A DNA stretch of 32,000 bases from an uncultured Alphaproteobacteria bacterium (lineage in GTDB: Bacteria > Pseudomonadota > Alphaproteobacteria > Rhizobiales > Xanthobacteraceae): positions 3,204,869 through 3,236,868 of the forward strand of contig CAVYEF010000001.1 in NCBI GenBank assembly GCA_963767445.1, read 5' to 3'. The notes beneath the pieces were generated by a model, which had not been told where the DNA came from, made no database searches, and saw only the letters and a program-made list of their open reading frames with translations. Below, piece after piece: positions 119 through 14,445 of the stretch (position 1 is its first letter; each line of letters opens with the position of its first letter). Made by a program: the position numbers and the translations under genes.

Positions 119-321
119 GTCGTCCCCGCGAAGGCACTAGGGCATGCACATATCTCTGTCGTCATTGCCGGGCTTGACCCGCGCATGACGAGATGTGTGC
201 ATGCCCTAGCGCGAAGGCGGGGACCCATACGCCGTGACGCTCGCGTTGACGCGCGACGTTGCAACGTCGTGCCAGACCACGAACGACGGTGGTTATGGGT
301 CCCCGCCTTCGCGGGGACGAC
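119..321. repeat. Composite REP: family-A inverted-arm element with a short family-B MITE inserted in the left arm hairpin
   Basis: GTCGTCCCC-GCGAAGGC-[ACTAGGGCATGCACATATCTCTGTCGTCAT...ATGACGAGATGTGTGCATGCCCTAGC]-GCGAAGGC-GGGGACCCATA ... TTATGGGTCCCCGCCTTCGCGGGGACGAC. There is an exact 8-bp direct duplication around the insert. Confidence 0.9.
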
Positions 322-361
322 GGCGGAATTTTTTTATAACGCCGTCGCCCCGAGGCCTGCC

Positions 362-988
362 ATGCACGCGCCGCTGCCGCCGATGTCCCGCCTCTCGCTC
401 AGCCTCGATGGCAGCATCGAGGGCTATGCCAGCCTGTTCGGCGAGGTCGACCAGGCCCGCGACATGGTGATGCCCGGCGCGTTCGCGCAGACGCTGAAGC
501 AACGCGGCCTGCGCAAGATCCCGATGCTGTTCCAGCACGATCCCTCCGAGCCGGTCGGGATCTGGCTCGACCTCGTCGAGGACTGGCGCGGCCTGAAAGC
601 GCGCGGCCGGCTGATCCCGGACGTGGCGCGGGCGCGCGAACTGCTGTCGCTGCTGAAAGCCGGCGCGGTCGACGGGCTGTCGATCGGCTACCGCACCGTG
701 CGCGGCCAGATCGATCCGAAGACCCGGGTGCGCCGGCTCTATCAGGTCGAGCTGTGGGAAATCTCCATCGTGACGTTTCCGCTGCTGAACGGCGCGCGGG
801 TCAGCGCGGTGAAAGCGGCGGCGCCGAAACTGTCGCGGCTGCGCGCCGCCGCCGAAGCCGAGTGGCGCAGCGTTGTGGCAGGTGGAGAGATCGGCGCACC
901 GCGTTCGCGGCATGCGCCGCTGGCGTCGAGGTTGAGCGATCGCGATGGCCGCAGAACCGCGCTGCGCGATGTCGCAAGGGCGCGGTGA
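362..988 (+). CDS. GTA g4-like HK97-family prohead (capsid maturation) protease
   Basis: Translation (SLDGSIEGYASLFGEVDQARDMVMPGAF...LFQHD...GLSIGYR...ELWEISIVTFPL) matches my recollection of HK97 prohead protease / RcGTA g4. It lies upstream of the capsid gene. The track ORF starts at 185 inside a REP element, so I chose the internal ATG at 362 (383 is an alternative). Confidence 0.85.
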   Translation: MHAPLPPMSRLSLSLDGSIEGYASLFGEVDQARDMVMPGAFAQTLKQRGLRKIPMLFQHDPSEPVGIWLDLVEDWRGLKARGRLIPDVARARELLSLLKAGAVDGLSIGYRTVRGQIDPKTRVRRLYQVELWEISIVTFPLLNGARVSAVKAAAPKLSRLRAAAEAEWRSVVAGGEIGAPRSRHAPLASRLSDRDGRRTALRDVARAR

Positions 989-1448: not shown

Positions 1449-2402
1449 ATGCAAAGAAAATCGACCTGCTTCATCACTGCCGCCGCCGTTGCCTTCGCCT
1501 CTGCCACCGCGACCCCTGTCCACGCGCAAGCATACCACACTTTTGTCTCGGGACTCGGCGACGACACACAGCCGTGCTCCCGCGGCGCGCCGTGCAAGAC
1601 GTTTGCCACCGCGCTCTCGAAGACCGCCGCCGGGGGCGAGATCAACTGCGTCGATAACGGCGGCTATGGTCCAGTGACGATCACCAAATCCATCACCATC
1701 GATTGCTCCGGGGCCAAGGCGACCATCCTTGCCCCGAGTACGACGGGCGTCAACATCAACGTCGATGTCGTGAGCGGCCTCATCGTTCGCCTGCGTAACC
1801 TTTATATCAACGGCCTGCTCAACATCAACCCGAGCAGAGGCATCGCGATCGTCGGAACGACAAACAACGACAACGCCATCAGCATCGAGAACTGCGTCAT
1901 CGATGGATTCACCACCAACGGGATCATCGACTCCGCCAAGAACGGCCGCCTGCTCATCAAGGATACGGTAGTCCGCAACAATTACGGACCCGCCGTCACG
2001 ATTGCATCGGCGTCGGGAACCTCGAGCGTCAAGGCGACGCTGGACAACGTCAGCACGTTCGACTCCGGTTTTGGTTTCGCGTTCGGCAACGGCGCGCAGG
2101 CATTGATCAAGAACTCGATCGCATCGCAGCACGTCACCGCGGGCGTGCAGGCGGATGCGGGCGCCACGGTCGCGATCGTGTCCAGCGTCATTCTGGGCAA
2201 CCCCACGGGTATCTCTGCGAATGCCGGTTCTAACGTCCGCGTCCGCAGCAGCGATATCTCCTACAATACCACCAGCAACGGCGGCGCGATCCAGTCGCAT
2301 ATCGACAACAGCTTCTTCGCCAATGGCGCTGCCGGCCCTGTCAATCCCGCTGCCGGTGGCGTTACCAGTCCGCAAGGCCTGCAGGTGAGAAGCTTGCCGT
2401 AA
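1449..2402 (+). CDS. Secreted right-handed parallel beta-helix repeat protein (accessory, not a canonical GTA gene)
   Basis: Sec-type signal peptide (MQRKSTCFITAAAVAFASATATPVHA-QA). N-terminal pattern FVSGLGDD..PC.RGAPCKTFA.AL..TAAGGEINCVDNGGYG, followed by repeated short N/G/I/V-rich beta-helix-like rungs. The region is visibly more A/T-rich than its flanks. Confidence 0.7.
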   Translation: MQRKSTCFITAAAVAFASATATPVHAQAYHTFVSGLGDDTQPCSRGAPCKTFATALSKTAAGGEINCVDNGGYGPVTITKSITIDCSGAKATILAPSTTGVNINVDVVSGLIVRLRNLYINGLLNINPSRGIAIVGTTNNDNAISIENCVIDGFTTNGIIDSAKNGRLLIKDTVVRNNYGPAVTIASASGTSSVKATLDNVSTFDSGFGFAFGNGAQALIKNSIASQHVTAGVQADAGATVAIVSSVILGNPTGISANAGSNVRVRSSDISYNTTSNGGAIQSHIDNSFFANGAAGPVNPAAGGVTSPQGLQVRSLP

Positions 2403-2940: not shown

Positions 2941-3049
2941 CGGCGATCCTTTGTTTTGCGAAGACTACATCAACGAGCCCGCGGTGCCAGGGTTCCGACG
3001 CACGTGTCCCGAACGAATCAACGCTGCGCGCCGCATCGCGCCTGGAATC

Positions 3050-3218
3050 GTCGTCCCCGCGCAGGCGCTAAGGCATGCACACATCTCGTCATGCGCGGGC
3101 TTGACCCGCGCATCCATCCATCTTCGAAAGAGTCTTTCGAAGCGTGATGGATTGCCGGGTCAAGCCCGGCAATGACGACAGAGATATGTGCATGCCCTAG
3201 CGCCTGCGCGGGGACGAC
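3050..3218. repeat. Composite REP: family-B/C MITE flanked by inverted outer halves of family-A arms
   Basis: GTCGTCCCCGCGCAGGC-[B/C core differing by 1 nt from the copy at 998-1168]-GCCTGCGCGGGGACGAC. Here the 8-mers flanking the core are inverted rather than direct. Confidence 0.9.
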
Positions 3219-3274
3219 AGCGGCATTTTTTCACCGATCCCGCAACACCTCACCCAACCACAGGAGTATCCCTT

Positions 3275-4528
3275 ATGGACTTCGACATTTCAGACACCGC
3301 CCCCGAGCACAAGGCCGGCATCGCCGTTCGCGACGCCTACGACGATTTGCGCGTCACCTTCGAGGAGTTCAAATCCGCCAATGACGAGCGGCTGGCGAAA
3401 CTCGAGCGACGCCGCGGCGACGTGCTGCTGGAGGAGAAGGTCGAGCGCATCAACGCGGCGCTCGACCTGCAGAACCGGCGCATCGACGACGTCGCGCTTC
3501 GGCAGGGGCGTCCCGCGCTGGAAGGCCGCGGCCGGATCGTGCAGGACGCCGCCAACCGCGAGCACAAGAGCGCGTTCGACGCCTATGTGCGCTCCGGCGA
3601 GACCGCCGCGCTGCGCACGATCGAGACCAAGGCGATGTCGGCCGGCTCCGACGCCGACGGCGGCTATCTGGTGCCGGTCGAACTCGAGCACGCGATCGGC
3701 CAGCGGCTCGCCAGCATCTCGCCGATCCGCGGCCTCGCCTCGGTGCGCGAAATCTCCGGCTCGGTCTACAAGAAGCCGTTCATGACCGCGGGACCGGCGA
3801 CGGGGTGGGTCGGCGAGACCGACGCGCGCCCGCAGACCGCCTCGCCCGTGCTCGACGCGCTGTCGTTTCCGGCGATGGAGCTCTACGCCATGCCGGCGGC
3901 GACCGCGACGCTGCTCGACGACAGCGCCGTCAACATCGACGAATGGATCGCCGGTGAAGTCGAGCTCACCTTCGCGGTGCAGGAGGGCGCCGCGTTCGTG
4001 TCGGGGGACGGCAGCAATAAGCCGAAGGGCTTTCTCTCCTACAGCACGGTGGCGAATGCGTCGTGGGCCTGGGGCAGCCTCGGCACCATCGCCTCGGGTG
4101 CGGCCGGCGCGTTCGCCTCCAGCAATCCGTCCGATCCCTTGGTCGACCTGATCTATGCGCTGAAGGCGGGCTACCGGCAGAACGGCAACTTCGTGATGAA
4201 CCGCAAGACCCAGGCGGCGATCCGCAAGTTCAAGGACTCCACCGGCAATTACCTGTGGCAGCCGCCGGCGCAGGCCGGCGGGCGCGCCAACCTGATGACG
4301 TTCCCGATCGTGGAAGCCGAGGACATGCCGGACATCGCGGCCAATTCGCTGTCGATCGCGTTCGGCGACTTCCGCCGCGGCTACCTGATCGTCGACCGCG
4401 TCGGCGTCCGGGTGCTGCGCGACCCGTATTCCGCAAAACCCTACGTGTTGTTCTACACCACCAAGCGCGTCGGCGGCGGCGTGCAGGACTTCGACGCCAT
4501 CAAGCTGATGAAGTTCGCGGTGAGTTAG
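3275..4528 (+). CDS. GTA g5-like major capsid protein (HK97 family)
   Basis: GGAG 8 nt upstream of the ATG at 3275. N-terminal coiled scaffold-like delta region, then ...DADGGYLVP...ELYAMP...GDGSNKPKGFL...NGNFVMNRKT...YLWQP...LMTFPIVEAEDMP...GDFRRGYLIVDRVG..., typical of HK97-fold capsid proteins. The track ORF start at 3188 lies inside a REP element. Confidence 0.95.
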   Translation: MDFDISDTAPEHKAGIAVRDAYDDLRVTFEEFKSANDERLAKLERRRGDVLLEEKVERINAALDLQNRRIDDVALRQGRPALEGRGRIVQDAANREHKSAFDAYVRSGETAALRTIETKAMSAGSDADGGYLVPVELEHAIGQRLASISPIRGLASVREISGSVYKKPFMTAGPATGWVGETDARPQTASPVLDALSFPAMELYAMPAATATLLDDSAVNIDEWIAGEVELTFAVQEGAAFVSGDGSNKPKGFLSYSTVANASWAWGSLGTIASGAAGAFASSNPSDPLVDLIYALKAGYRQNGNFVMNRKTQAAIRKFKDSTGNYLWQPPAQAGGRANLMTFPIVEAEDMPDIAANSLSIAFGDFRRGYLIVDRVGVRVLRDPYSAKPYVLFYTTKRVGGGVQDFDAIKLMKFAVS

Positions 4529-4544
4529 CGTTAGCTCACCCGTC

Positions 4545-4777
4545 GTCGTCCCCGCAGGCGGGGACCCATAGCCACCGGCGAGCGTGGTTGCTGGTGGACC
4601 GTCGCAGGACCGTGCGTCAACACGAACGACACGGCGTATGGGTCCCCGCCTGCGCGGGGACGACGCGGAGTGAGATTCTCACATCGCGTCATACGCGGAC
4701 TTGATCCGCGTATCCATTGATCTCCGAAAAGCTTCTCACGAAGCGTGATGGATGCGCGGGTCAAGCCCGCGCATGAC
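4545..4777. repeat. Family-A inverted-arm REP followed by a diverged family-C palindrome
   Basis: GTCGTCCCCGCAGGCGGGGACCCATAGCCACCG...CGGCGTATGGGTCCCCGCCTGCGCGGGGACGAC, then GTCATACGCGGACTTGATCCGCGTATCCAT...GATGGATGCGCGGGTCAAGCCCGCGCATGAC. Confidence 0.9.
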
Positions 4778-4799
4778 GGAGATTCAGTCTGGACACTGC

Positions 4800-5435
4800 A
4801 TGCCGCAGCACGACGAGCCCTGGCAGCGCCATGCGCGCGAGCGCTGGATGCGGCCCGACGCGCATCGCTGGATACGCGCCGACGCCGCGCGCTTTCTCAA
4901 GCCCGGCACCGATCCCGCCGGCGTCTATCCGGCGCTGGCGCGCAAGCGCGACGCGGAAGACGCAGCGATTGCAGCACAGCTTGCGCAGGAGCGCGAACGC
5001 CTGGTCGCGCTGCGCGACGAACTGATATCGATCCAGGCCGAGCTGGAACGGCGGCGGCTGAAGCAAAGCAAATACAGCCCGAGCCAGCCGCGCGTGCCGA
5101 CGGGCAATCCGCGCGGCGGGCAATGGACCGATCGCAGCGGAGGTGCGGCTCAAGGCACCGGCCTCGCGTTGCCGATGGGCGACGCCGAACCCGGCGATGT
5201 CAGCGGGGCGAGCGATGTCGGCGATCCGTTTCAGATCACGCCGGACGACACGCGCGCGGACGGTGAACAGGTCGCGGATGTTATCAGGGTCTGCACAGTG
5301 ACCGGCGCTGGGCGGTCCACTGTCGATGGGGTTAAGACCCACTTTGTTATTTATGAGTGCGCTGGCGGAAGAACTTTTCGCAGGGATGGCGTCGGACACA
5401 ACTTTCGCGGCGTTGTTCTCGACCCGTTTCGGTGA
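4800..5435 (+). CDS. Polymorphic-toxin-like protein A: charged/coiled N-terminal region, conserved linker (SQPRVPTGNPRGGQWTDRSGG), short variable C-terminal domain
   Basis: ORF in the operon orientation directly after the capsid gene. I chose the internal ATG at 4800 because 4752-4799 is REP sequence. It shares a 150-nt perfectly identical segment and a further diverged linker with ORF 6107-6850, then diverges completely after TRADG-QVA. A tightly following small ORF fits a toxin/immunity layout. The function is inferred, not recognised. Confidence 0.6.
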   Translation: MPQHDEPWQRHARERWMRPDAHRWIRADAARFLKPGTDPAGVYPALARKRDAEDAAIAAQLAQERERLVALRDELISIQAELERRRLKQSKYSPSQPRVPTGNPRGGQWTDRSGGAAQGTGLALPMGDAEPGDVSGASDVGDPFQITPDDTRADGEQVADVIRVCTVTGAGRSTVDGVKTHFVIYECAGGRTFRRDGVGHNFRGVVLDPFR

Positions 5436-5483
5436 TTGAAACAATACGGCGCCTTGTCTGCGGGATAACGCAAGGACAATTGC

Positions 5484-5975
5484 ATGGTTCAGGTTAACGA
5501 TGACTTCTTCAACAGTCCCGGGCAGGTCGGGATTTCTTCCGCGGCGCTTGCGGAGGCGCGGAAGTTTGCGCGGGCGGTCGGGGCGTTGGATCATGGCGCT
5601 CAGATTGTCAGTATCGATTGGGCGTTGTCGCTCATCCTGCGGGAGCCCGGGCAGCCGGAACGGCAGGTTGGTCCCTGCGTGATGATCGGCGCCTATCGAC
5701 GGGATCAGGTGCCTGAACAATTCATCGATGTGATCGACGGATTGGAATTGGCATTCCAGATTCCGGATAATGCATGGCCTGCGGGCGCGCTGAGGATTGT
5801 CGACGTCGACGAGACCAAACCGTTCGGATTTGGGTTGCAATGGGTTTTCTCGCGCCAGCAGCGATTGTTCCGCGATCGAGCAATCGGATTTCCGCCGCGG
5901 CTACCTGATCGTCGACCGCGTCACCACCAAGCGCGTCGGCGGCGGCGTGCAGGGACTTCGACGCCATCAAGCTGA
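5484..5975 (+). CDS. Putative cognate immunity protein A (C-terminus chimeric, reads into the capsid-gene remnant)
   Basis: AAGGA 6 nt upstream of the ATG, and 48 nt downstream of the toxin-A stop. Lower-GC segment. The last ~27 codons are encoded by the out-of-frame capsid 3' remnant (from ~5895), so the native C-terminus has probably been replaced. I recognise no family. Confidence 0.45.
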   Translation: MVQVNDDFFNSPGQVGISSAALAEARKFARAVGALDHGAQIVSIDWALSLILREPGQPERQVGPCVMIGAYRRDQVPEQFIDVIDGLELAFQIPDNAWPAGALRIVDVDETKPFGFGLQWVFSRQQRLFRDRAIGFPPRLPDRRPRHHQARRRRRAGTSTPSS

Positions 5976-5995
5976 TGAAGTTCGCGGTGAGTTAG
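5895..5995 (+). pseudogene. Degenerate duplicate of the g5 capsid gene 3' end
   Basis: Aligns by eye to 4364-4528. It has one 54-bp in-frame internal deletion (equivalent to 4403-4456) and a 1-nt insertion (cagGgacttc). It ends in the same GTGAGTTAG stop context and is followed by the same REP element. Confidence 0.85.
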
Positions 5996-6011
5996 CGTTA
6001 GCTCACCCGTC

Positions 6012-6125
6012 GTCGTCCCCGCGCAGGCGGGGACCCATAGCCACCGGCGAGCGTGGTTGCTGGTGGACCGTCGCAGGACCGTGCGTCAACACGAACGACA
6101 CGGCGTATGGGTCCCCGCCTGCGCG
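6012..6125. repeat. Duplicate of the family-A REP at 4545-4655, truncated at its right arm by fusion to the toxin linker
   Basis: Near-identical to 4545-4655 (one 2-nt indel). The right arm ends ...GGGTCCCCGCCTGCGCG and continues directly into AACGCCTGGTCGCG of the toxin gene. Confidence 0.9.
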
Positions 6126-6850
6126 AACGCCTGGTCGCGCTGCGCGACGAACTGATATCGATCCAGGCCGAGCTGGAACGGCGGCGGCTGAAGCAAAGCA
6201 AATACAGCCCGAGCCAGCCGCGCGTGCCGACGGGCAATCCGCGCGGCGGGCAATGGACCGATCGCAGCGGCGGGCAGGGCACGGCGCAAGGCCAGGATCA
6301 GAGCCAGGACCCCGCCATCGCATCGCCGATGGGCGATGCCGAACCCGGCAACGTCAGCGGATCGAGCGACGTCGGCGATCTGTTCTCGACCAAGCCGGAC
6401 GTCACACGCGCTGACGGCGTGCAGGTCGCGGGTGACGGCTATCCGATTGATTTGCTCGAAGAACGCGAACTTGGCGGTCATGCAATCGAGCGTCACATCA
6501 GAAGTGACCAATCGCTCAAGTCCGACTTGGAAGCGCAGGTTGCCGGGGCCGTGCGCAAGGGCGACTCTGTTAGCGATATGCGGCAGGGTGCATTCAGCTC
6601 GCTCGAATCCGCGAACAAGCTTGTTAATGCAACTATCGCGGAAAATCCGGAACAGATTCGTCGGGTCGTCAGCGGGGTATCGCCGAAGGAAGAGCTCGAC
6701 CCAACCGGACGGGAAGCCGTTGCGCGCACGGGACGGTCGCAGATATATATTCGAGACACTTATGATGTGCGTGTTGTTATTGTACCGGACGGCTCGGTGG
6801 CAAAGGGCTTTCGAGTTGAGACGGCATTCCCGATGAACCGCAAGCGATGA
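6107..6850 (+). CDS. 5'-truncated polymorphic-toxin-like protein B with putative RNase-type C-terminal domain
   Basis: Nucleotides 6121-6270 are identical to 4991-5140 of toxin A. The region equivalent to the first ~64 codons of A is missing. In-frame starts are only available inside the REP element (ATG 6107 within tATGGGTCCCC, or 6053). The C-terminal domain has the GGHAIERHI and ETAFP motifs, which I recall from CdiA-CT RNase-type toxins. Confidence 0.55.
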   Translation: MGPRLRERLVALRDELISIQAELERRRLKQSKYSPSQPRVPTGNPRGGQWTDRSGGQGTAQGQDQSQDPAIASPMGDAEPGNVSGSSDVGDLFSTKPDVTRADGVQVAGDGYPIDLLEERELGGHAIERHIRSDQSLKSDLEAQVAGAVRKGDSVSDMRQGAFSSLESANKLVNATIAENPEQIRRVVSGVSPKEELDPTGREAVARTGRSQIYIRDTYDVRVVIVPDGSVAKGFRVETAFPMNRKR

Positions 6851-6854
6851 TGCC

Positions 6855-7346
6855 ATGCCAAAAGAATTCAAGATCGCACTTCGCCTGGCTTATGATGATC
6901 TGGGATCGCTACAGTCCTGGTCACGGGCAGCGAATTACCTGCGTGCACGGGAATTCCTTGAAGCGCTGGTCGGAGGCCCGCATCGGGTGGCCAAAACGCA
7001 TTTTGGCGACATTGATGAGTACGATATTTCATCCCAGGCGCAAATGAATGAATTCATAAGATTCAATTCGGAGTTGAAAAGGGCGAATCCCGAAACCGAT
7101 CCTGGTCGCGCGATGGCGCAAACTGGTCTGGACGTCCATTGCCTGTTCAACGGGATATCGATGACAATTCCCTACGGCACGGTGCAGAACTACCGGCTTG
7201 CTTCGGCGCTGGCATCTGAACTCACCGGTCCCGCCGGGCGCGCGGTTTCGGAAGAAGGAGACGAGACATTTTATCTCGAAACGCGAGAACAAATGGACGC
7301 GTTGTTTGCTTTGCAACGGAAGTTGAAAGTGAAGCGCGAAGATTGA
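6855..7346 (+). CDS. Putative cognate immunity protein B
   Basis: The ATG lies 4 nt after the toxin-B stop (tight coupling). 163 aa, acidic. This is the most A/T-rich segment of the window. I recognise no family; the role is inferred from position only. Confidence 0.5.
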   Translation: MPKEFKIALRLAYDDLGSLQSWSRAANYLRAREFLEALVGGPHRVAKTHFGDIDEYDISSQAQMNEFIRFNSELKRANPETDPGRAMAQTGLDVHCLFNGISMTIPYGTVQNYRLASALASELTGPAGRAVSEEGDETFYLETREQMDALFALQRKLKVKRED

Positions 7347-7401
7347 CGTTGCTCGTGGTCTCTGTTGCGCGGAGCATTCTTCGCGTCTAGGACATGGGTC
7401 T

Positions 7402-8160
7402 TCACAATCCCGCGCTCCACGCGCGCGCCGTCTGCAATATCCACCCCCGGTACAGCGTCAGCGGGGTAACGCCGGTGAGGCCGCCGCAGCCGTCGGTGTT
7501 GTTCGGTCCCGTCGACCAGCTTACCACGCCAACAATGACGGCGCGGCCGCCCTGCATCGCGAAGGCCGGCGCGCCGGAATCCCCGGTGCAGGCGCCGAGG
7601 CCATCGCGGGTGTTGTTGGTGAGCGGATCGGCGAGACGGATCTGCAAAGTGCCGGGCTTGCCGGTGATGGCGAGATCCGCGGCGCGGACGCTGCCGCCGC
7701 TCTTGCCGTCGCCGCGCCGGGTGACGCCGACGCCGGCGATGGTAAGGCGGTCGCCGGTCTGAATCGGGACCAGCGGCGCGCCGAGCGGCGCCGGGGTTTT
7801 GCTCGCGGGCAGCGGAGCGGCCAGTTGCAGCAGCGTCACGTCGGCGGAGGCGCGGTGCGCCGCGATGCTTGCCGCATTGAATTGCGGATGCTGCGCCACG
7901 CGCTTGACGTCGAGCAGACGCGGCGGCGTTTCGCCGGGAACGATGACCTTGTAGTCGGCGCCGGGCATCGCGCAATGCGCCGCGGTCAACACCAGATCCT
8001 GCGCGATCAGGCTGCCGGTGCAGAAGGTGCCGCGCGAGCCGATGACGGTGACGACCGCGCGCGACATGTTTTCCGCGGGCGCGCCGCCGCCGCCGACGAT
8101 GGCGGATGCGGGGGTGACGGCGAGCGCGGCGGCGACGGCGATGACGAAGCGTTGAATCAT
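7402..8160 (-). CDS. Secreted trypsin-like (S1 family) serine peptidase
   Basis: Signal peptide MIQRFVIAVAAALAVTPASA, then IVGG, TAAHC (His), and GDSGAP (Ser) motifs. It is antisense to the GTA operon. I chose the start at 8160 (internal Met of track ORF 7402..8208). Confidence 0.85.
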   Translation of the reverse strand: MIQRFVIAVAAALAVTPASAIVGGGGAPAENMSRAVVTVIGSRGTFCTGSLIAQDLVLTAAHCAMPGADYKVIVPGETPPRLLDVKRVAQHPQFNAASIAAHRASADVTLLQLAAPLPASKTPAPLGAPLVPIQTGDRLTIAGVGVTRRGDGKSGGSVRAADLAITGKPGTLQIRLADPLTNNTRDGLGACTGDSGAPAFAMQGGRAVIVGVVSWSTGPNNTDGCGGLTGVTPLTLYRGWILQTARAWSAGL

Positions 8161-8264
8161 CCGGCGATGTGAGCCGCTGCCGGCGGCGAGTGTCAATGCT
8201 CCTCGCATCCCGTACCCGATGCGGCGCGACGTGCCGCGTCCGCGGCGCGAAATACATAAAGCGC

Positions 8265-8352
8265 GTCATGCGCGGGCTTGACCCGCGCATCCATCCAGCT
8301 TCGCAACACGCTTTCGAAGACGATGGATTGCCGGGTCAAGCCCGGCAATGAC
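8265..8352. repeat. Family-C palindrome alone
   Basis: GTCATGCGCGGGCTTGACCCGCGCATCCATCC...GATGGATTGCCGGGTCAAGCCCGGCAATGAC, immediately upstream of g6. Confidence 0.9.
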
Positions 8353-8371
8353 GAAGGGAAGGATCACCGCC

Positions 8372-8938
8372 ATGTCCGCCATCCTGCTGACGCCGCCATC
8401 CGCCGAGCCGTGGACGGTGGCGGAGGCCAAGGACTTTCTGCGCATCGAGCATGACGATGACGATACCATCGTCGCGGCGCTGGTCGCGGCAGCCCGCGGC
8501 CATGTCGAGGCGCTGACGCGGCGCGCGCTGCTGACGCAGGGCTGGCGCTTCGTGCTCGATGCGTGGCCATCAGACGGCCGCTACGCGCCGCGCATGGCGC
8601 CGCTGCGCGAACTCGCCGCGGCGCGGGTCTACGACGCCGCCGGCCACGCCGGCGCCGTCGACACCGCGACCTTCGTGCTCGACGCCGCCGCCAATGTGAT
8701 CGCGGCGCCATGCTTGTCGCTGCCCGTTCCCGGCCGCGCCGCCGCCGGCATCGAACTCGACGTCCAGCTCGGCTACGGCGCCGCGGTCGATGTGCCGGAT
8801 GCGCTGCGCCATGCGGTGCGCATGCTGGTGGCGCACTGGTACGAGAACCGCGGCCTCGCCGCGCTCGGCGCAAGCGTGGCGGTGCTGCCGGCCGGCGCCG
8901 GCGCGCTGCTCGCGCCCTATCGGGTGCTGTCGCTATGA
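8372..8938 (+). CDS. GTA g6-like head-tail connector (gp6-like adaptor)
   Basis: GGGAAGGA upstream of the ATG at 8372. Pattern EPWTVAEAKDFLRIEHDDDDTIVAALVAAARGHVEALTRRALLTQ....HWYENRG is typical of phage gp6-like head-tail connectors. Its stop overlaps the next start (ATGA). Confidence 0.85.
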   Translation: MSAILLTPPSAEPWTVAEAKDFLRIEHDDDDTIVAALVAAARGHVEALTRRALLTQGWRFVLDAWPSDGRYAPRMAPLRELAAARVYDAAGHAGAVDTATFVLDAAANVIAAPCLSLPVPGRAAAGIELDVQLGYGAAVDVPDALRHAVRMLVAHWYENRGLAALGASVAVLPAGAGALLAPYRVLSL

Positions 8939-9264: not shown

Positions 9265-9375
9265 GGCGCGCAGATCATCCCGAACGCCGGGCGTTCGTAA
9301 CGGCCCCGGCTCTGCAGCACATCGCGCCGCAAAGTGCGACGCGGCGCTGCGTCCGGGGCACGCAGTATATCTGCC

Positions 9376-9494
9376 GTCGTCCCCGCGCAGGCGGGGACCC
9401 ATAGCCACGGTGTTTGCAGCGGCGCGCCGGCGCTGGGGCATCGTGCTTCATCACGACGGCGGTGTGTATGGATCCCCGCCTGCGCGGGGACGAC
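9376..9494. repeat. Family-A inverted-arm REP
   Basis: GTCGTCCCCGCGCAGGCGGGGACCCATAGCCACGG...GTGTGTATGGATCCCCGCCTGCGCGGGGACGAC, between g7 and g8. Confidence 0.9.
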
Positions 9495-9515
9495 GGCTTA
9501 AAAGGAATCTTCGCC

Positions 9516-9926
9516 ATGTCATCCGCCCACGTCGCGCTGCGGTCGGCCATTCATGACGCGCTGGTCGCCGATAGCGGCCTGGCCGCGGCGCTTGGCGGCG
9601 CCAAGGTCTATGACGAGCCGCCGCGTAACGCGGTGTTTCCCTATGTCACGCTCGGCGAGGCGCGTATCGTCGATATCTCCGCCGACGACGGCCCGACCCA
9701 GGAACATCAACTGACGCTGCACGCCTGGTCGCGGCAGGGCGGCCACAGGCAAGCCCATCTCATCGCAGGCGCGCTGTTGAGCGCGCTCGACGACGCACCG
9801 CTCGCGCCCGACGGGCACCGGCTGGTCAATCTGCGCTTCGCGCTCGCTGATATCCGCCGCCAAGCCGACGGCCAAACCTATCACGCACTGGTGCGGTTTC
9901 GCGCCATCACCGAACCCGCGACATAA
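9516..9926 (+). CDS. GTA g8-like tail terminator (DUF3168-like)
   Basis: AGGA upstream of the ATG at 9516. Pattern L.AD..L.AALGG.KVYDE.P....FPYVTLGE ... H.L.LH.WSR resembles DUF3168. The position between g7 and the major tail gene also fits. Confidence 0.8.
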   Translation: MSSAHVALRSAIHDALVADSGLAAALGGAKVYDEPPRNAVFPYVTLGEARIVDISADDGPTQEHQLTLHAWSRQGGHRQAHLIAGALLSALDDAPLAPDGHRLVNLRFALADIRRQADGQTYHALVRFRAITEPAT

Positions 9927-9936
9927 GGAACAGCCC

Positions 9937-10344
9937 ATGGGCGCGCAAAAAGGCAAGGACCTGCTGCTCAAGATCGACGGCGGCACCGGCTTCGTCACCG
10001 TGGCGGGCTTGCGCAGCCGCCGCATCGCCTTCAACGCCGAACTGGTCGACATCACGCACGCGGAATTGGTCGACCGCTGGCGTGAATTGCTGGCCGGCGC
10101 CGGGATGCGGCGGGCGTCGATCTCGGGGCGCGGCCTGTTCAAGGACGCCGCCTCCGACGCGCTGGTGCGGCAGGCGTTCTTCGACGGCGCGGTCAACAAC
10201 ACCCGGGTGATCGTGCCGGATTTCGGCACCGTCGAGGGGCTGTTCCAGATTTCGAGCCTGGAATTTGCCGGCGAGCACAATGGCGAAGTGACGTTCGACC
10301 TCACGCTGGAATTGGCCGGCGCGCTGACATTCACGGCGATGTAG
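9937..10344 (+). CDS. GTA g9-like major tail (tube) protein
   Basis: AAGGAA upstream. MGAQKGKDLLLKID.G.GFVTVAGLRS..I.FNAE.VD.T ... SG.G.F.D...D ... F.I.SLE.AGEHNGEVTF.L.L matches the TP901-1-type major tail protein as in RcGTA g9. Confidence 0.9.
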   Translation: MGAQKGKDLLLKIDGGTGFVTVAGLRSRRIAFNAELVDITHAELVDRWRELLAGAGMRRASISGRGLFKDAASDALVRQAFFDGAVNNTRVIVPDFGTVEGLFQISSLEFAGEHNGEVTFDLTLELAGALTFTAM

Positions 10345-10349
10345 GTTTC

Positions 10350-10475
10350 ATCGTCCTCGCGGAGGCGGGGACCCACACGCCGTCGCTGCGAACTAGAAAG
10401 TGTCGACGGCTTGCGGGTGCAATTTTGCCGGATCATGAACGCCGGTGGTCATGGATCCCCGCCTGCGGGGACGAC
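10350..10475. repeat. Family-A inverted-arm REP (diverged)
   Basis: ATCGTCCTCGCGGAGGCGGGGACCCACA...TCATGGATCCCCGCCTGCGGGGACGAC, between g9 and g10. Confidence 0.8.
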
Positions 10476-10489
10476 GAGGAGAGGTTTCG

Positions 10490-10813
10490 ATGGCCAACAA
10501 ATACCGCGGCGAGATCGAGGCCGAGATCGGCGGCATCCGGCGCGTGCTGGTGCTGACGCTGGGGGCGCTGGCGGAACTGGAGAGCGCGTTCGCGGCCGGC
10601 GACCTGGTGGCGCTGGCGGAGCGCTTGGGTTCGGGACGGTTGTCGGCGCGCGACCTCGTGCGCATCATCGCCGCCGGCCTGCGCGGCGCCGGCGAGAACA
10701 TCGGGGACGACGAGGTCGCGGCCATGACGGTGGAGGGCGGCGCCGCCGGTTATGTGCGGATCGCAGCCGAACTGATCGCCGCCACCTTCGACGACACGCC
10801 GGCGCCGCGATGA
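10490..10813 (+). CDS. GTA g10-like tail assembly chaperone (gene transfer agent family protein)
   Basis: GAGGAGAGG upstream of the ATG at 10490. RGEIEAEIGG..R.L.LTLGALAELE.AF...L.AL..R resembles the GTA g10 family. The track ORF start at 10445 lies in a REP arm. Confidence 0.8.
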   Translation: MANKYRGEIEAEIGGIRRVLVLTLGALAELESAFAAGDLVALAERLGSGRLSARDLVRIIAAGLRGAGENIGDDEVAAMTVEGGAAGYVRIAAELIAATFDDTPAPR

Positions 10814-11001
10814 AGCCGTTCCCGTGGACCGACGCCATGCAGTTCGGCTTCGGCGTGCTGCGCCTGTCGCCGGACGCGTTCTGGCGAATGACGCCGCGCG
10901 AACTGGCGCAGGCCATCGCCGCGGTGCGCGGCCATGCCCCGGCGCCGATCGCGCGCGGCGATTTCGACGCGCTGATGCAAGCGTTTCCGGACAGGGCATA
11001 A
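10810..11001 (+). CDS. GTA g10.1-like protein (rcc01693-family tail assembly chaperone)
   Basis: ATGA overlap with g10. MKPFPW.DAMQFGFGVLRLSPDAFWRMTPRELA.A matches my recollection of the rcc01693 family. Confidence 0.8.
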   Translation: MKPFPWTDAMQFGFGVLRLSPDAFWRMTPRELAQAIAAVRGHAPAPIARGDFDALMQAFPDRA

Positions 11002-11011
11002 CGTACTCAGC

Positions 11012-11099
11012 GTCATGTGCGGGCTTGACCCGCGCATCCATCAATCTTCGCAAGATTCTTTCGAAGACGATGGATTGCCGGGTCAAGCCCGGCAACGAC
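11012..11099. repeat. Family-C palindrome alone
   Basis: GTCATGTGCGGGCTTGACCCGCGCATCCATCA...GATGGATTGCCGGGTCAAGCCCGGCAACGAC, between g10.1 and g11. Confidence 0.9.
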
Positions 11100-11118
11100 A
11101 CAGATGGAGGAGCGATTC

Positions 11119-11703
11119 ATGGCCGACGACACCGACCTGCTCTCGACGTCGAGCACGCTCGACGGCCTTGCGCTGAAGACAAAAGACCTCACCGCCAGCG
11201 CCGGCGGATTCGCGCGCGCGATGACGCAGGCGTTTTCCGCCTCCGTCAGCGGCGGCAAGCAGTTCGACGACGTACTGAAATCGCTCGGCCTGCGCATCTC
11301 CGATCTCGCGGTGCGGCTCGCCTTCAAGCCGCTGGAGAAGTCCTTGACCAGCGGCATATCGAGCCTGCTGTCGGGGCTGACCGGCAGCGTCGGCGGCGGC
11401 GCGACCTCATCGCTCGCCGCCGCGTCCGGCGCGATCAAGCCGTTCGCGGCCGGCGGCGTGATCGGCACGCCGAGCTATTTTCCGCTCGCAAGCGGCGGCG
11501 TGGGCCTTGCCGGCGAAGCCGGACCCGAAGCGATCATGCCGCTGACGCGCGGCCCCGACGGCCGGCTCGGCGTATCCGGCGGCGGCGGCAACACCATCAA
11601 TGTGCAGATCGCCACCCCCGACCTCGACAATTTCCGCCGCTCCGAAAGCTACGTCACCGGCCAGATCGCCCGCGCCGTGGCGCGAGGGCAGCGCAGTTTG
11701 TGA
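11119..11703 (+). CDS. GTA g11-like short tape measure protein
   Basis: GGAGGA 7 nt upstream of the ATG at 11119. Ala/Gly/Ser-rich helical N-terminus, then FAAGGVIG.PSYFP...G.GLAGEAGPEAIMPL.RG.DGRLGV, typical of the GTA tape measure. Confidence 0.85.
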   Translation: MADDTDLLSTSSTLDGLALKTKDLTASAGGFARAMTQAFSASVSGGKQFDDVLKSLGLRISDLAVRLAFKPLEKSLTSGISSLLSGLTGSVGGGATSSLAAASGAIKPFAAGGVIGTPSYFPLASGGVGLAGEAGPEAIMPLTRGPDGRLGVSGGGGNTINVQIATPDLDNFRRSESYVTGQIARAVARGQRSL

Positions 11704-11728
11704 GCTACTTGCTCCGGACGCACCACGA

Positions 11729-11931
11729 GTCGTCCCCGCGCAGGAGGGGACCCATAGCCACCGATGTTTGTGGTTGCGTGCGGACAATGCCACATCGTGC
11801 TTCAACGCCAGCACGGTGTGTATGGGTCCCCGCCTTCGCGCTAGGGCATGCACATATCTCTGTCGTCATTGCCGGGCTTGACCCGCGCATGACGAGATGT
11901 GTGCATGCCTGAGCGCCTTCGCGGGGACGAC
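11729..11931. repeat. Composite REP: family-A element with a short family-B MITE in the right arm
   Basis: ...TATGGGTCCCC-GCCTTCGC-[GCTAGGGCATGCACATATCTCTGTCGTCATTGCCGGGCTTGACCCGCGCATGACGAGATGTGTGCATGCCTGAGC]-GCCTTCGC-GGGGACGAC. There is an exact 8-bp direct duplication. Confidence 0.9.
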
Positions 11932-11964
11932 GATGATTGTTATGGGCGCCCAGGATACTGAATC

Positions 11965-12600
11965 ATGTCGTTTCACGAAATCCTGTTTCCGCTCGACATC
12001 GCGCTGCGCAGCGCGGGCGGGCCGGAGCGGCGCACCGAACTGGTGACGTTCGGCTCCGGGCGCGAGGCACGCAACGCGCGCTGGGCGCATTCGCGCCGCC
12101 GCTACGACGCGGGCTACGGCGTAAAGACGCTGGATGCGCTGCAGGCGGTAGTGGCGTTCTTCGAGGAGCGGCGCGGCCAGCTCCACGGGTTTCGCTGGCG
12201 CGACCGGCTCGATCATTCCAGCGCCGCGCCGGGCGCGCCGGTCTCCCCGCTGGACCAGGGCATCGGCATCGGCGACGGCATCACCGCGACGTTTCAACTG
12301 ATGAAAACCTACGGCGCGGGTTTTGCGCCCTATGCGCGCGCGATCGTCAAACCCGTGGGTGGCAGCGTGCGCGTCGCGGTCAGCGGTGCCGAGATCGCGG
12401 GCACGGCTTTCGGCTGCGACGTCGCCACCGGCGTGGTGACGTTCGCCGCCGGCCATATTCCGCCGGCGGGCGCTGCGATCACCGCGGGATTCCTGTTCGA
12501 CGTACCGGTGCGGTTCGACACCGATTATCTCGAAGTCGATTTCTCCGCCTTTGCCGCCGGCGCGATCCCGAAGATCCCGCTGGTCGAGATACGGATTTAG
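11965..12600 (+). CDS. GTA g12-like distal tail protein (DUF2460)
   Basis: MSFHEILFP.DI...S.GGPERRT..V...SG.E.RN.RW..SRR.YDAGYGV......L..V..FFE.RRG...GFRW.D is the characteristic DUF2460 N-terminus. Confidence 0.9.
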   Translation: MSFHEILFPLDIALRSAGGPERRTELVTFGSGREARNARWAHSRRRYDAGYGVKTLDALQAVVAFFEERRGQLHGFRWRDRLDHSSAAPGAPVSPLDQGIGIGDGITATFQLMKTYGAGFAPYARAIVKPVGGSVRVAVSGAEIAGTAFGCDVATGVVTFAAGHIPPAGAAITAGFLFDVPVRFDTDYLEVDFSAFAAGAIPKIPLVEIRI

Positions 12601-12614
12601 CGTCGCCCCACCTC

Positions 12615-12746
12615 GTCGTCGTCCCCGCGAAGGCCCTCTGTTCCCTCCCCCCTTGTGGGGAGGGTTAGGGAGGGGGGTGGCCGCATGCCCCGGTGTTTGT
12701 GATTACCCCCCTCTCCAACTCTCCCCCACAAGGGGGGGAGAGGGCC
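12615..12746. repeat. Half family-A arm followed by a family-F G/C-tract double hairpin
   Basis: GTCGTCGTCCCCGCGAAGGC, then CCCTCCCCCCTTGTGGGGAGGG...CTCTCCCCCACAAGGGGGGGAGAGGG (two hairpins in inverted orientation), between g12 and g13. Confidence 0.8.
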
Positions 12747-12799
12747 GAGCGCTGTGCGCGGCACCGCCGGTGCCGGATTTTTTGCGAGAAAGCTACTCC

Positions 12800-13711
12800 A
12801 TGCGCGCCATCCCATCCGCCTTGCAGGCGAAACTCGATTCCGGCGTCACCACGCTGGCGCGGTGCTGGAAGCTGACGCGGCGTGACGGCGGCGTCACCGG
12901 ATTCACCGATCACGACCGCGACCTCGTGCTCGACGGCGTGACCTGCCGCGCCGGCACCGGCTTTGCCGCCTCGGAGGCGACCAGCCGGTTCGATCTGTCG
13001 GTCGATGGCGCGGAAGTTTCCGGCGCGCTCGCCGACGATTCGCTGACGGAGGCCGATCTCGCCGCCGGGCGCTACGACGCGGCGCGCATCGAAACCTGGC
13101 TGGTGGACTGGAGCGAACCGTCGTTGCGCGTACTGACCGCGCGCGGCACGCTCGGCGAGGTCCGGCGCGAAGGCCAGGCCTTCACCGCGGAGCTGCGCGG
13201 GCTCGCCGACCTGCTGTCGCAGGAAAGCGGGCGGCTCTATACCGCCAGATGCGGCGCCGATCTCGGCGACGCGCGCTGCAGGGTCGACCTTTCGGCGCCG
13301 ACGCTGCGCGGCACCGGCGCCGTGACCGCGATCGAGGGCGGCTCGATCGTGGTTGTCGCCGGCCTCGACGACTTTGCCGACGGATGGTTTTCCTCAGGGA
13401 GGCTGACATGGACCGGCGGCGCCAATGCCGGGCTCGGCATCGAGATCAAGCAGCATCGCCTGCTCACAGGCCATGCGCGGCTGACGCTGTGGCAGGCGAT
13501 GGCCGAGCCGGTCGCGGCCGGCGACACGTTCACCGTGACCGCCGGCTGCGACAAGAGTTTCGCCACCTGCCGCGCCCGCTTCGCCAACACCGACAATTTC
13601 CGCGGCTTTCCGCAGATCCCCGGCAACGATTTCCTGATCGGCGCCCCGACCCAGGGCGCGCCGGGCAATGACGGGCTGCCGCTGGTTTCCCCGCCGGTCC
13701 TGCCGGGGTAG
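12800..13711 (+). CDS. GTA g13-like hub protein (DUF2163 plus BR0599-like C-terminal domain)
   Basis: Internal ATG at 12800, after the repeat element. MRAIPSALQAKLDSGVTTLARCWKLTRRDG...GFTDHD.DL..DGV.C ... CDK.F.TC...F.N..NFRGFP.IPG.DF is typical of this family. Confidence 0.9.
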   Translation: MRAIPSALQAKLDSGVTTLARCWKLTRRDGGVTGFTDHDRDLVLDGVTCRAGTGFAASEATSRFDLSVDGAEVSGALADDSLTEADLAAGRYDAARIETWLVDWSEPSLRVLTARGTLGEVRREGQAFTAELRGLADLLSQESGRLYTARCGADLGDARCRVDLSAPTLRGTGAVTAIEGGSIVVVAGLDDFADGWFSSGRLTWTGGANAGLGIEIKQHRLLTGHARLTLWQAMAEPVAAGDTFTVTAGCDKSFATCRARFANTDNFRGFPQIPGNDFLIGAPTQGAPGNDGLPLVSPPVLPG

Positions 13712-13726
13712 GCGGATGTTTCAACC

Positions 13727-13988
13727 GTCGTCCCCGCGAAGCGGGGACCCATAGCCACCGGTGCTTTGGCTGCGCACGAACGGTGCGACGACGCGCTTCA
13801 ACGCGAGCAGCGGTGTGTATCGGTCCCCGCCTGCGCGCTAAGGCATGCACACATCTCGTCATGCGTGGGCTTGACCCGCGCATCCATCCATCTTCGAAAC
13901 AGTCTTTCGAAGCGTGATGGATTGCCGGGTCAAGCCCGGCAATGACGACAGAGATATGTGCATGCCCTAGCGCCTTCGCGGGGACGAC
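13727..13988. repeat. Composite REP: family-A element with a full family-B/C MITE in the right arm
   Basis: GTCGTCCCCGCGAAGCGGGGACCCATAGCCACCG...TATCGGTCCCC-GCCTGCGC-[B/C core]-GCCTTCGC-GGGGACGAC. The 8-bp direct duplication has 1 mismatch. Confidence 0.9.
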
Positions 13989-14004
13989 GAACGGAGCTGT
14001 TGGC

Positions 14005-14445
14005 ATGCCCCCACCTCTCACCCGCGCCGCGATCGTTGCCGAGGCGCGCTCCTGGATCGGCACGCGCTATCGGCATCAGGCGTCGGTGAAGGGCGTCGGC
14101 TGCGATTGTCTCGGGCTGGTGCGCGGAGTGTGGCGGGCATGCGTCGGCGAGGAGCCGGAGACGGTGCCGCCTTACGCGCCGGACTGGGCCGAGTCGAGCG
14201 GCGAAGAGTTGCTTGCCGACGCGGCGCTGCGTCATCTTGCGCCGGTGCCGTGCGAAAAATTCGCGGCCGGCGACGTGCTGCTGTTTCGCTGGCGCGCCGG
14301 GTGCGTCGCCAAGCATGTCGCCATCGCGGCATCGCACGGCGCCATGATCCATGCCCATGACGGCGCATCGGTATGCGAGATCGCCATCGCGCCGTGGTGG
14401 CGGCGTCGGCTCGCTCATGCGTTCGCCTTTCCCGGAGTTGACTGA
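14005..14445 (+). CDS. GTA g14-like NlpC/P60 cell-wall peptidase
   Basis: ACGGAG upstream of the ATG at 14005. IV.EAR.WIGT.YRHQAS.KG.GCDCLGLVRGVW (catalytic Cys context) ... HVAI....MIHA. The track ORF start at 13942 is inside a REP element. Confidence 0.9.
   Translation: MPPPLTRAAIVAEARSWIGTRYRHQASVKGVGCDCLGLVRGVWRACVGEEPETVPPYAPDWAESSGEELLADAALRHLAPVPCEKFAAGDVLLFRWRAGCVAKHVAIAASHGAMIHAHDGASVCEIAIAPWWRRRLAHAFAFPGVD

Follow-up and report, generated by a model that had tools for sequence, protein, structure and literature searches.

A two-member array of predicted toxin/immunity cassettes and a copied capsid-gene end in an RcGTA-like gene cluster

The toxin slot behind the capsid gene

Contig CAVYEF010000001.1, from an uncultured member of the Xanthobacteraceae, carries within the 32,000-nucleotide (nt) stretch analysed here (the window) genes in the order g4, g5, g6, g8–g15, i.e., the order of a head–tail cluster like that of the Rhodobacter capsulatus gene transfer agent (RcGTA). 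Pfam scans of the g4–g15 part of the window also returned the domains GTA_TIM, Rcc01698_C and GTA-gp10, which are specific to gene transfer agents (GTAs), so that the cluster, known here from its genes, can be assigned to the RcGTA-like type on both gene order and domain content. The terminase and portal genes lie outside the window; both are present in two related loci, L028 and L029. Between the major capsid gene g5 and an antisense trypsin-like gene on the g6 side lie four open reading frames (ORFs), referred to here as toxin A, immunity A, toxin B and immunity B (Table 1), and the g5–g6 slot is a two-member array of polymorphic toxin/immunity cassettes, in which cassette A stands intact directly behind g5 and cassette B is an orphan. 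Scans for promoters and terminators across 4400–7450 gave no signal above background.

We read positions 3000–8000 of the window, aligned 4300–5300 pairwise with 5850–6450 and ran a repeat finder. An earlier note on this DNA, made by eye, had described a duplication of the capsid 3′ end, a repetitive extragenic palindromic (REP) element and a toxin linker, and both the alignment and the repeat finder showed this duplication to be real. At 5887–6270, three distinct parts of 4367–5140 recur almost perfectly. The capsid piece derives from the last 162 nt of g5 (4367–4528), of which 4367–4401 recurs at 5887–5921 (34/35 identical), the next 54 nt (4402–4455) are missing in frame from the second copy, and 4456–4485 recurs at 5922–5951 (30/30). 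One additional G follows in the second copy near 5952, within a G run, and 4486–4552 then recurs at 5953–6019 (67/67), a stretch that covers the g5 stop codon (4526–4528, equivalent to 5993–5995). The 54-bp in-frame deletion and the 1-nt insertion had thus been read correctly, and the start of the capsid repeat is to be moved from 5895 to 5887. The single-base insertion in the G run may be a sequencing error if the assembly is a long-read metagenome bin, and no conclusion rests on it.

The REP piece follows after an additional CG in the second copy (6020–6021), with 4553–4651 recurring at 6022–6120 (99/99). The single 2-nt indel reported for this repeat stands, and the extent of the complete element is to be corrected from 4545–4655 to 4535–4674. 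The third piece, from the conserved N-terminal region of the toxin, is 4991–5140, which is identical to 6121–6270 over 150/150 positions in the alignment, as had been counted by eye. Past 5140/6270 the identity drops at once, to ~80% with indels between 5151–5280 and 6305–6434, beyond which the sequences are unrelated. Chance comes nowhere near explaining perfect repeats of this length (67 to 150 nt) in 32 kb, and the unit of g5 3′ end, REP and toxin 5′ region is indeed present twice, as had been claimed.

The second copy is bounded and interrupted by two junctions, which together form what we call the scar. At junction 2, 339 nt (4652–4990) are gone from the second copy, comprising the rest of the REP, a second palindrome and toxin codons 1–64; the earlier list of lost parts was right, and only its size of ~335 nt needed revision. 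The pentamer GCGCG stands at 4652–4656 and again at 4991–4995, and once in the second copy, at 6121–6125, which is the microhomology that the earlier note had described. One of these pentamers sits in the 3′ arm of the REP hairpin, and the arrangement fits slippage or a microhomology-mediated deletion at a structured site. At junction 1 (5884–5889), the tail of cassette A is joined to g5 position 4367. Cassette A is homologous to the cassette of L028 up to ~5886, with its tail matching through CGGAT, and g5 sequence runs from TTCCGCC onward. The microhomology is just 2–5 nt and imperfect (GAT/TTC), and junction 1 reads as an illegitimate junction. The sequence at this left edge does not bear out the proposal that the capsid gene had served as the homology arm in this event.

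Many intergenic gaps in the GTA cluster are filled by long REP-like palindromes, which fall into two families. The complete REP (copy 1) gives a predicted fold of −101.7 kcal/mol (z = −8.8), and copy 2, which has lost its outer arm, one of −76 kcal/mol; relatives of this element lie at 210–326, 9375–9495 and 11729–11840. The second palindrome (−59.7 kcal/mol, z = −6.7) has relatives at 1031–1125, 3083–3177, 8264–8353 and 11011–11091. These elements are imperfect palindromes with long hairpins that are repeated in many intergenic regions, i.e., of the type of REP elements and of REP doublets forming hairpins (REPINs). An Rfam scan of the whole window returned no family match, including for both palindrome families.

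Table 1. Features of the toxin slot and of the surrounding GTA cluster (positions in the window)
Feature	Position	Strand	Basis or remark
g4, prohead protease	185–988		S78 protease
Right-handed beta-helix gene	1449–2402		between g4 and g5; outside canonical cluster
g5, HK97-type major capsid gene	3275–4528	+	Pfam Phage_capsid, E = 6.7e-90; synteny
REP/REPIN-type hairpin, copy 1, complete	4535–4674	+	inverted repeats, RNA fold
Second palindromic intergenic element ("family C")	4680–4790	+	fold; copy 1 only
Toxin A (predicted), full length, 211 amino acids (aa)	4800–5435	+	696 relatives share N-terminal ~155 aa
Immunity A (predicted)	5484–5843	+	natural end by homology at ~codon 120; ORF open to 5975
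Cassette A tail	5844–5886	+	aligns with L028 downstream of immunity A
g5 3′ end copy	5887–5995	+	4367–4528 without 4402–4455, plus one base
REP copy 2	6002–6125	+	CG extra at 6020–6021; outer 3′ arm gone
Junction 2, single GCGCG	6121–6125	+	sequence reading and alignment
Orphan toxin B (predicted)	6121–6850	+	from codon-65 equivalent; PF18431, E = 1.8e-9
Immunity B (predicted), 163 aa	6855–7346	+	homologues in L028, L029
Trypsin-like serine protease gene	7402–8208	−	Pfam Trypsin, E = 1.8e-25
g6	8348–8938		
g8	9414–9926		
g9	9937–10344		
g10	10445–10813		GTA-gp10
g12	11965–12600		DUF2460
g13	12551–13711		
g14	13942–14445		
g15	14445–18293		GTA_TIM, Rcc01698_C

The antisense trypsin-like gene is a conserved feature that bounds the g5 toxin slot downstream, and it lies between the slot and g6 in 19 of the related loci. 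It is outside the canonical RcGTA cluster, and most of the related GTA clusters have it in this place, namely L002, L003, L006, L007, L009, L010, L012–L015, L018–L020, L022–L024, L028 and L029. The beta-helix gene between g4 and g5 has a low GC content (0.55–0.61) and is found in some relatives (L028, 14808–15746), occurring twice in L009 (834–1700 and 4362–5297). The called start of g4 is probably inside a REP-like palindrome, and the real start likely lies ~50 codons downstream.

A predicted toxin family of gene transfer agent clusters

Toxin A begins with a conserved N-terminal region (4800 to ~5279), to which a small C-terminal domain rich in beta structure is joined (5280–5432), the latter modelled by AlphaFold2 (AF2) with a predicted local distance difference test (pLDDT) value of ~80. 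Neither toxin A nor its N-terminal region matches any Pfam, PHROG or NCBIfam family. A database search returned 696 relatives of toxin A, which are 50–70% identical over the first ~155 aa. This region is made up of a W/R/H-rich start, a long helix, the invariant motif KYSPSQPRVPxGNPRGGQWTDRSGG and a pre-toxin stretch, PMGxVxxGDVSGSSExGDLF. The C-termini of the relatives are of at least four unrelated types (PF18431 RNase A, MafB19 deaminase, HNH-like and the small beta domain), and where checked, the downstream gene switches with the C-terminus, A-type toxins being followed by homologues of immunity A and B-type toxins by homologues of immunity B. The shared N-terminus with alternative C-termini, together with the co-varying downstream immunity gene, marks these genes as a putative polymorphic-toxin family (in the sense of Zhang et al. 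2012) with ~700 database relatives, which appears to be undescribed. N-terminally cut members, with various cut points, are frequent in the protein database, and the 120 proteins listed by a motif-profile search of that database are all of 90 aa or fewer and thus uninformative on domain partners. No link of the N-terminal region to a known export route (type V, type VI or type VII secretion system, Sec, MuF and others) emerged from Pfam, PHROG or NCBIfam; the sole consistent neighbours of the family are GTA structural genes.

Immunity A shares 82% identity, over 118 aa, with the 119-aa gene located behind an A-type toxin in L028. The stop codon of this L028 gene, TGA, reads TGG in the window, making the ORF 44 codons longer, and this extension (5838–5975) crosses the scar and runs out of frame into the capsid fragment.

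Toxin B is composed of the identical stretch of the 150-nt repeat, a diverged pre-toxin linker (6271–6434) and an RNase-A-like CdiA-CT domain (6435–6850). Its frame is already open at 6039, with a GTG at 6053 as a possible start, in an in-frame fusion to REP sequence, and the last 120 residues of the ORF 6039–6850 match the bacterial CdiA-CT RNase A domain (PF18431). The nucleotide identity to the full-length toxins P0105 (L028) and P0084 (L029) is ~80%, and immunity B is 75–80% identical to the genes that follow the B-type toxins in L029 and L028. An independent Logan assembly of run ERR11571141 contains the exact immunity B sequence and the end of toxin B, on a contig that starts at ~6242. 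Toxin B has lost the promoter-proximal palindrome and codons 1–64, retains homology to the conserved region, and keeps an RNase-type toxin domain different from that of toxin A and an immunity gene, which makes it an orphan. The earlier description of a downstream copy that lacks its 5′ end and has a different C-terminal domain with its own immunity gene therefore holds, the domain being of the RNase-A-like type.

The N-terminal alignment was used to search a set with a single genome for each species, which yielded 26 loci from Bradyrhizobium, Afipia, Rhodopseudomonas, Nitrobacter and other Hyphomicrobiales, and the window proteins were mapped onto these loci. Isolates with the family include Rhodopseudomonas pseudopalustris DSM 123 and Afipia sp. 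OHSU_II-C1. The toxin gene lies inside an RcGTA-like cluster or adjoins its genes in 23 of the 26, and it is on the strand of the GTA genes in every GTA-cluster locus. Its position is mostly between g5 and the antisense trypsin gene, and it is also found between g4/g5, g9/g10 and g12/g13 (L001) and, in the metagenome contigs L028, L029 and L030, behind the portal and behind the terminase gene. The three non-GTA loci (L021, L025 and L026) match in the motif region alone, in small toxin-like proteins elsewhere in the genome. Those of L025 (9956–10690; Methylocystis) and L021 (9905–11118) combine the motif, as KYSPxQPRVPAG..GGQW, with a C-terminal domain and are followed by a small immunity-like gene; because these two lie outside GTA clusters, the motif would be older or broader in distribution than the GTA-linked N-terminal region.

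Scars similar to that of the window are found in many of these relatives. Extra 3′ fragments of g5 are present in 7 of 20 other loci (L004, L006, L011, L013 with two, L014, L018 and L022 with two), lying downstream of the first cassette and beside further toxin modules. Their start points are all different, ranging over window-equivalent 4310 to 4452, and their identity to the resident g5 ranges from 79 to 100%, suggesting that they differ in age. Portal 3′ fragments take the same role in L028 (718 nt, 90%) and L030 (628 nt, 93%), the latter with a possible terminase fragment as well (weak Pfam hit). In R. pseudopalustris DSM 123, an isolate, a fusion joins a g5 fragment to the final ~55 residues of an HNH-like toxin domain, and the ORF that comes next, a putative immunity gene, occupies the immunity position. 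Cassette boundaries are thus marked by g5 and portal fragments at varied positions, and in an isolate genome as well, so that the scar is the product of a recurrent, independent biological process and not a peculiarity of this assembly. The likeness to orphan C-terminal/immunity modules, which had been drawn from the window, thus extends to its relatives.

Two further loci show related irregularities. L017, from a Rhodopseudomonas metagenome bin (6231–6701 and 11023–11871), has what looks like a degraded cluster, in which g6–g9 are gone, the family toxin gene is kept and a truncated g4 runs directly into the last 49 codons of g5. L002, the closest genome relative (6780–8022 and 10001–10921), has an opposite-strand gene of 505 aa inserted between g5 and its toxin gene, and both g5 and the toxin gene contain apparent frameshifts, which are probably long-read homopolymer errors and call for caution on single-base differences in such bins.

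An assembly artefact, in which a long-read metagenome assembly merged two strains with different cassettes or mis-resolved the repeat, is very improbable as the source of the scar. The contig, which is 4.27 Mb long and known only from NCBI/ENA, could be a long-read metagenome bin, such as that of L002 with its apparent errors, and the additional G does lie within a G run. However, a strain chimera would join at shared sequence and would not make a 54-nt-deleted capsid fragment behind an illegitimate junction, and the repeats (204 nt or less) are far shorter than long reads. Similar scars are present in at least 7 other assemblies, the isolate genome among them, and immunity B with the end of toxin B recurs in the independent Logan assembly, though that contig stops 121 nt before junction 2.

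Origin of the array

Orphan toxin/immunity arrays are known from contact-dependent inhibition (CDI), Rhs and type VI loci. According to the accepted logic of such arrays, a cell that swaps its cassette loses immunity to the toxin of its neighbours, and the recombinants that survive are those which keep the old immunity gene. From the repeat anatomy, the two junctions, the cassette identities and the recurrence among relatives, we infer an order of events and a selective reason of this kind for the present locus, which would have probably arisen by additive acquisition of a cassette and orphaning of the older module, as in CDI/Rhs loci. A unit of ~1520 nt (4367–5886), consisting of the last 162 nt of g5, the REP, the palindrome, toxin, immunity gene and a 43-nt tail, would have been added beside an existing cassette, making the illegitimate junction at 5886/5887. 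Because the repeated arms are identical, the donor would have been the same genome or a very close relative. The addition would have retained the older immunity gene instead of swapping it out, which selection should favour as long as neighbours still make the older toxin. The copy that was not selected would later have decayed, losing 54 nt in the g5 fragment and 339 nt between the GCGCG pentamers.

The addition could have taken the form of a single-crossover insertion of a circularised fragment, or of a double crossover with an array-carrying donor, either of which would set the new cassette beside g5 and shift the old one downstream (route a). This route is favoured over a second one (route b), because it needs fewer steps and because the decayed copy is the downstream one. 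Cassette A is probably the newcomer and cassette B the displaced resident. In L028, g5 is followed by the full-length B-type toxin P0105, a B-type immunity gene and the trypsin gene, i.e., by the layout expected for the ancestor of the downstream copy in the window; a parental arrangement of g5 and a full-length B-type toxin had been predicted and is thus found in a relative.

A purely internal course (route b) is less likely, though it retains an appreciable chance. Here, 4367–5886 would have been duplicated in tandem via unequal, microhomology-mediated exchange between sister chromosomes, and the downstream toxin domain and immunity gene would then have been replaced, with the toxin N-terminal region as the upstream and the trypsin-gene side as the downstream replacement arm, so that B would be the newcomer and would have decayed later. 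The arms are 100% identical and junction 1 is illegitimate, both of which agree with this course, and a single-cassette donor of the L028 kind would supply both replacement arms. The fragments in other genomes also bear on it. Foreign functional g5 alleles were considered as the source of these fragments, and the raw codon-position counts placed 58 of 80 g5-fragment differences at third positions (p about 1e-12). When polarised with outgroups, the third-position excess was found mainly on the lineage of the resident gene, and the changes on the fragment lineage look neutral; the fragments are, moreover, mostly nearest to the resident g5 of their own genome. Because the polarised counts and the nearest-neighbour comparisons fail to support foreign import, this claim was dropped, and the earlier suggestion of foreign DNA in the repeated arms of the window, which are identical, is likewise not borne out. 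What speaks against the internal course is that it requires two rare events and not one, that nothing remains of a second A-type toxin domain or immunity gene, and that the newcomer would be the 5′-less copy, although selection would be expected to favour the toxin that has just been acquired.

Several points also weigh against additive acquisition with an orphaned resident. Internal tandem duplication, or gene conversion at a later time, could also account for the identical arms, and the polarised substitutions give no clear sign of a foreign functional g5 origin for the fragments of other genomes. The best relative in the genome collection is 64% identical in the toxin N-terminus, and the two-cassette structure is that of the assembly as it stands. 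Toxicity and immunity are predicted from gene architecture. Foldseek comparison of the C-terminal domain of toxin A with the PDB gave insignificant S28e/OB-like matches alone, and the toxin B domain is 5 residues shorter than in P0105 and P0084, a deletion that makes the activity of toxin B uncertain.

The direct repeats of 150 nt share a reading frame, and a single homologous deletion across them could possibly re-arm the orphan as a 306-aa full-length toxin B, colinear with P0105 and P0084. Orphan Rhs modules have been shown to recombine into the expressed toxin gene and thereby to change the toxin type. That the present array is likewise a maintained switching system, with the orphan as a silent cassette, is improbable. 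The repeat is perfect over its 150 nt and then falls sharply to 80%, the predicted recombinant would be intact and in frame, and arrays and truncated members are frequent in the toxin family, all of which would suit such a system. However, recombination would remove immunity A along with toxin A, many of the arrays of relatives consist of two full-length toxins and not of silent copies, the indels of the g5 fragment and of the REP copy serve no such purpose, and the toxin B domain carries its 5-residue deletion. We thus retain additive acquisition with later decay of the displaced resident as the preferred reading.

Possible particle cargo and known systems

What is new here is, on the one hand, orphan-array behaviour in an apparently undescribed toxin family within GTA structural clusters, with hosts among Bradyrhizobium, Rhodopseudomonas, Afipia, Nitrobacter and their relatives, and, on the other, the copying of capsid- and portal-gene ends along with the cassettes. 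The scars are a datable record of cassette turnover in an otherwise conserved operon. Searches of full-text papers turned up no account of this family or of toxin cassettes placed within GTA clusters. GTAs are mostly discussed as cooperative DNA-sharing devices, and a consistent link to kin-discriminating toxins would bear on why GTAs persist and on who benefits from them.

A tentative, rather unlikely extension of this link is that the toxins are cargo of the GTA particle itself. The N-terminal region with its invariant KYSPxQPRVPxGxxxGGQW motif would then direct the toxin to the inside or the surface of the GTA head, and the g4 prohead protease might process it. The lysis that frees the GTA would also release the toxin, which would enter recipients along with the DNA, and only kin with the matching immunity gene would safely receive GTA-borne DNA. 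Some observations hint in this direction. All full-length members that were found lie inside GTA clusters (23 of 26 loci; the remaining three have the motif region only), their genes always share the orientation of the GTA genes, and among 2.9 million viral contigs the family is almost missing. The AF2 model predicts disorder for the motif region, and the motif occurs four times as an inter-domain linker, in the form [KT][YF][DN]PxQPR[VW]PxGxxxGGQW, in a 1639-aa ORF of a 101-kb phage contig (L033, 3919–8838; IMGVR_UViG_3300014348_000112). A MuF-like head-morphogenesis gene (11599–13503) lies 2.7 kb downstream of this ORF, the product of which has no Pfam, PHROG or PDB sequence match. If the toxins were indeed cargo, toxin/immunity types would police GTA-mediated gene exchange, and the cassette arrays on structural-gene ends would be a record of that arms race.

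In its overall arrangement the array resembles the orphan cdiA-CT/cdiI and rhs-CT/immunity modules, in which a toxin domain, together with its immunity gene, has been displaced to a place downstream of the main gene. As in these modules, a piece of the conserved upstream coding sequence is kept, the 5′ end with the start is gone, the immunity gene is kept, and the retained homology could rebuild a full-length toxin by recombination; one of the toxin domains (PF18431) is, moreover, itself of the CdiA-CT type. While similar in these respects, we note four differences between the present locus and the CDI/Rhs systems. First, the locus shows no CdiB, filamentous haemagglutinin (FHA) repeats, VENN motif, YD repeats or PxxxxDPxGL; of these, CdiB, the haemagglutinin repeats of CdiA and the VENN pre-toxin motif were not found in the Pfam-scanned g4–g15 part of the window. 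Second, what is conserved here is an undescribed N-terminal region, short at ~155 aa. Third, the upstream homology does not end with the toxin gene, passing through the REP into a GTA structural gene, g5 here and the portal gene elsewhere. Fourth, the locus is a GTA head–tail cluster, whereas the CDI/Rhs modules belong to secretion-system operons.

The cluster itself agrees with RcGTA-like clusters in its gene order g4, g5, g6, g8–g15 and its GTA-specific domains. It differs from the canonical RcGTA cluster, which is without toxin/immunity cassettes, in that variable slots occur, in the window or in relatives, after g2, g3, g4, g5, g9 and g12, and in its beta-helix gene and its conserved antisense trypsin-like gene. 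As to mechanism, homology-facilitated illegitimate recombination and Campbell-type single-crossover insertion are alike in being additive, with one side homologous and the other end joined at microhomology; this likeness is a mechanistic analogy only.

The MuF-domain polymorphic toxins of prophages have been predicted to be cargo of phage heads (Zhang et al. 2012, PMC3482391). Neither toxin A nor toxin B matches the MuF (SPP1 gp7-like) domain in Pfam. In contrast to that class, the genes described here are small and separate, stand behind several different structural genes, and belong to an RcGTA-like GTA and not to a prophage. In both cases, however, toxin domains and immunity genes lie among the head-morphogenesis genes (terminase, portal, capsid) of a phage-derived element, and the MuF class is the nearest conceptual relative of the cassettes in the g5–g6 slot.

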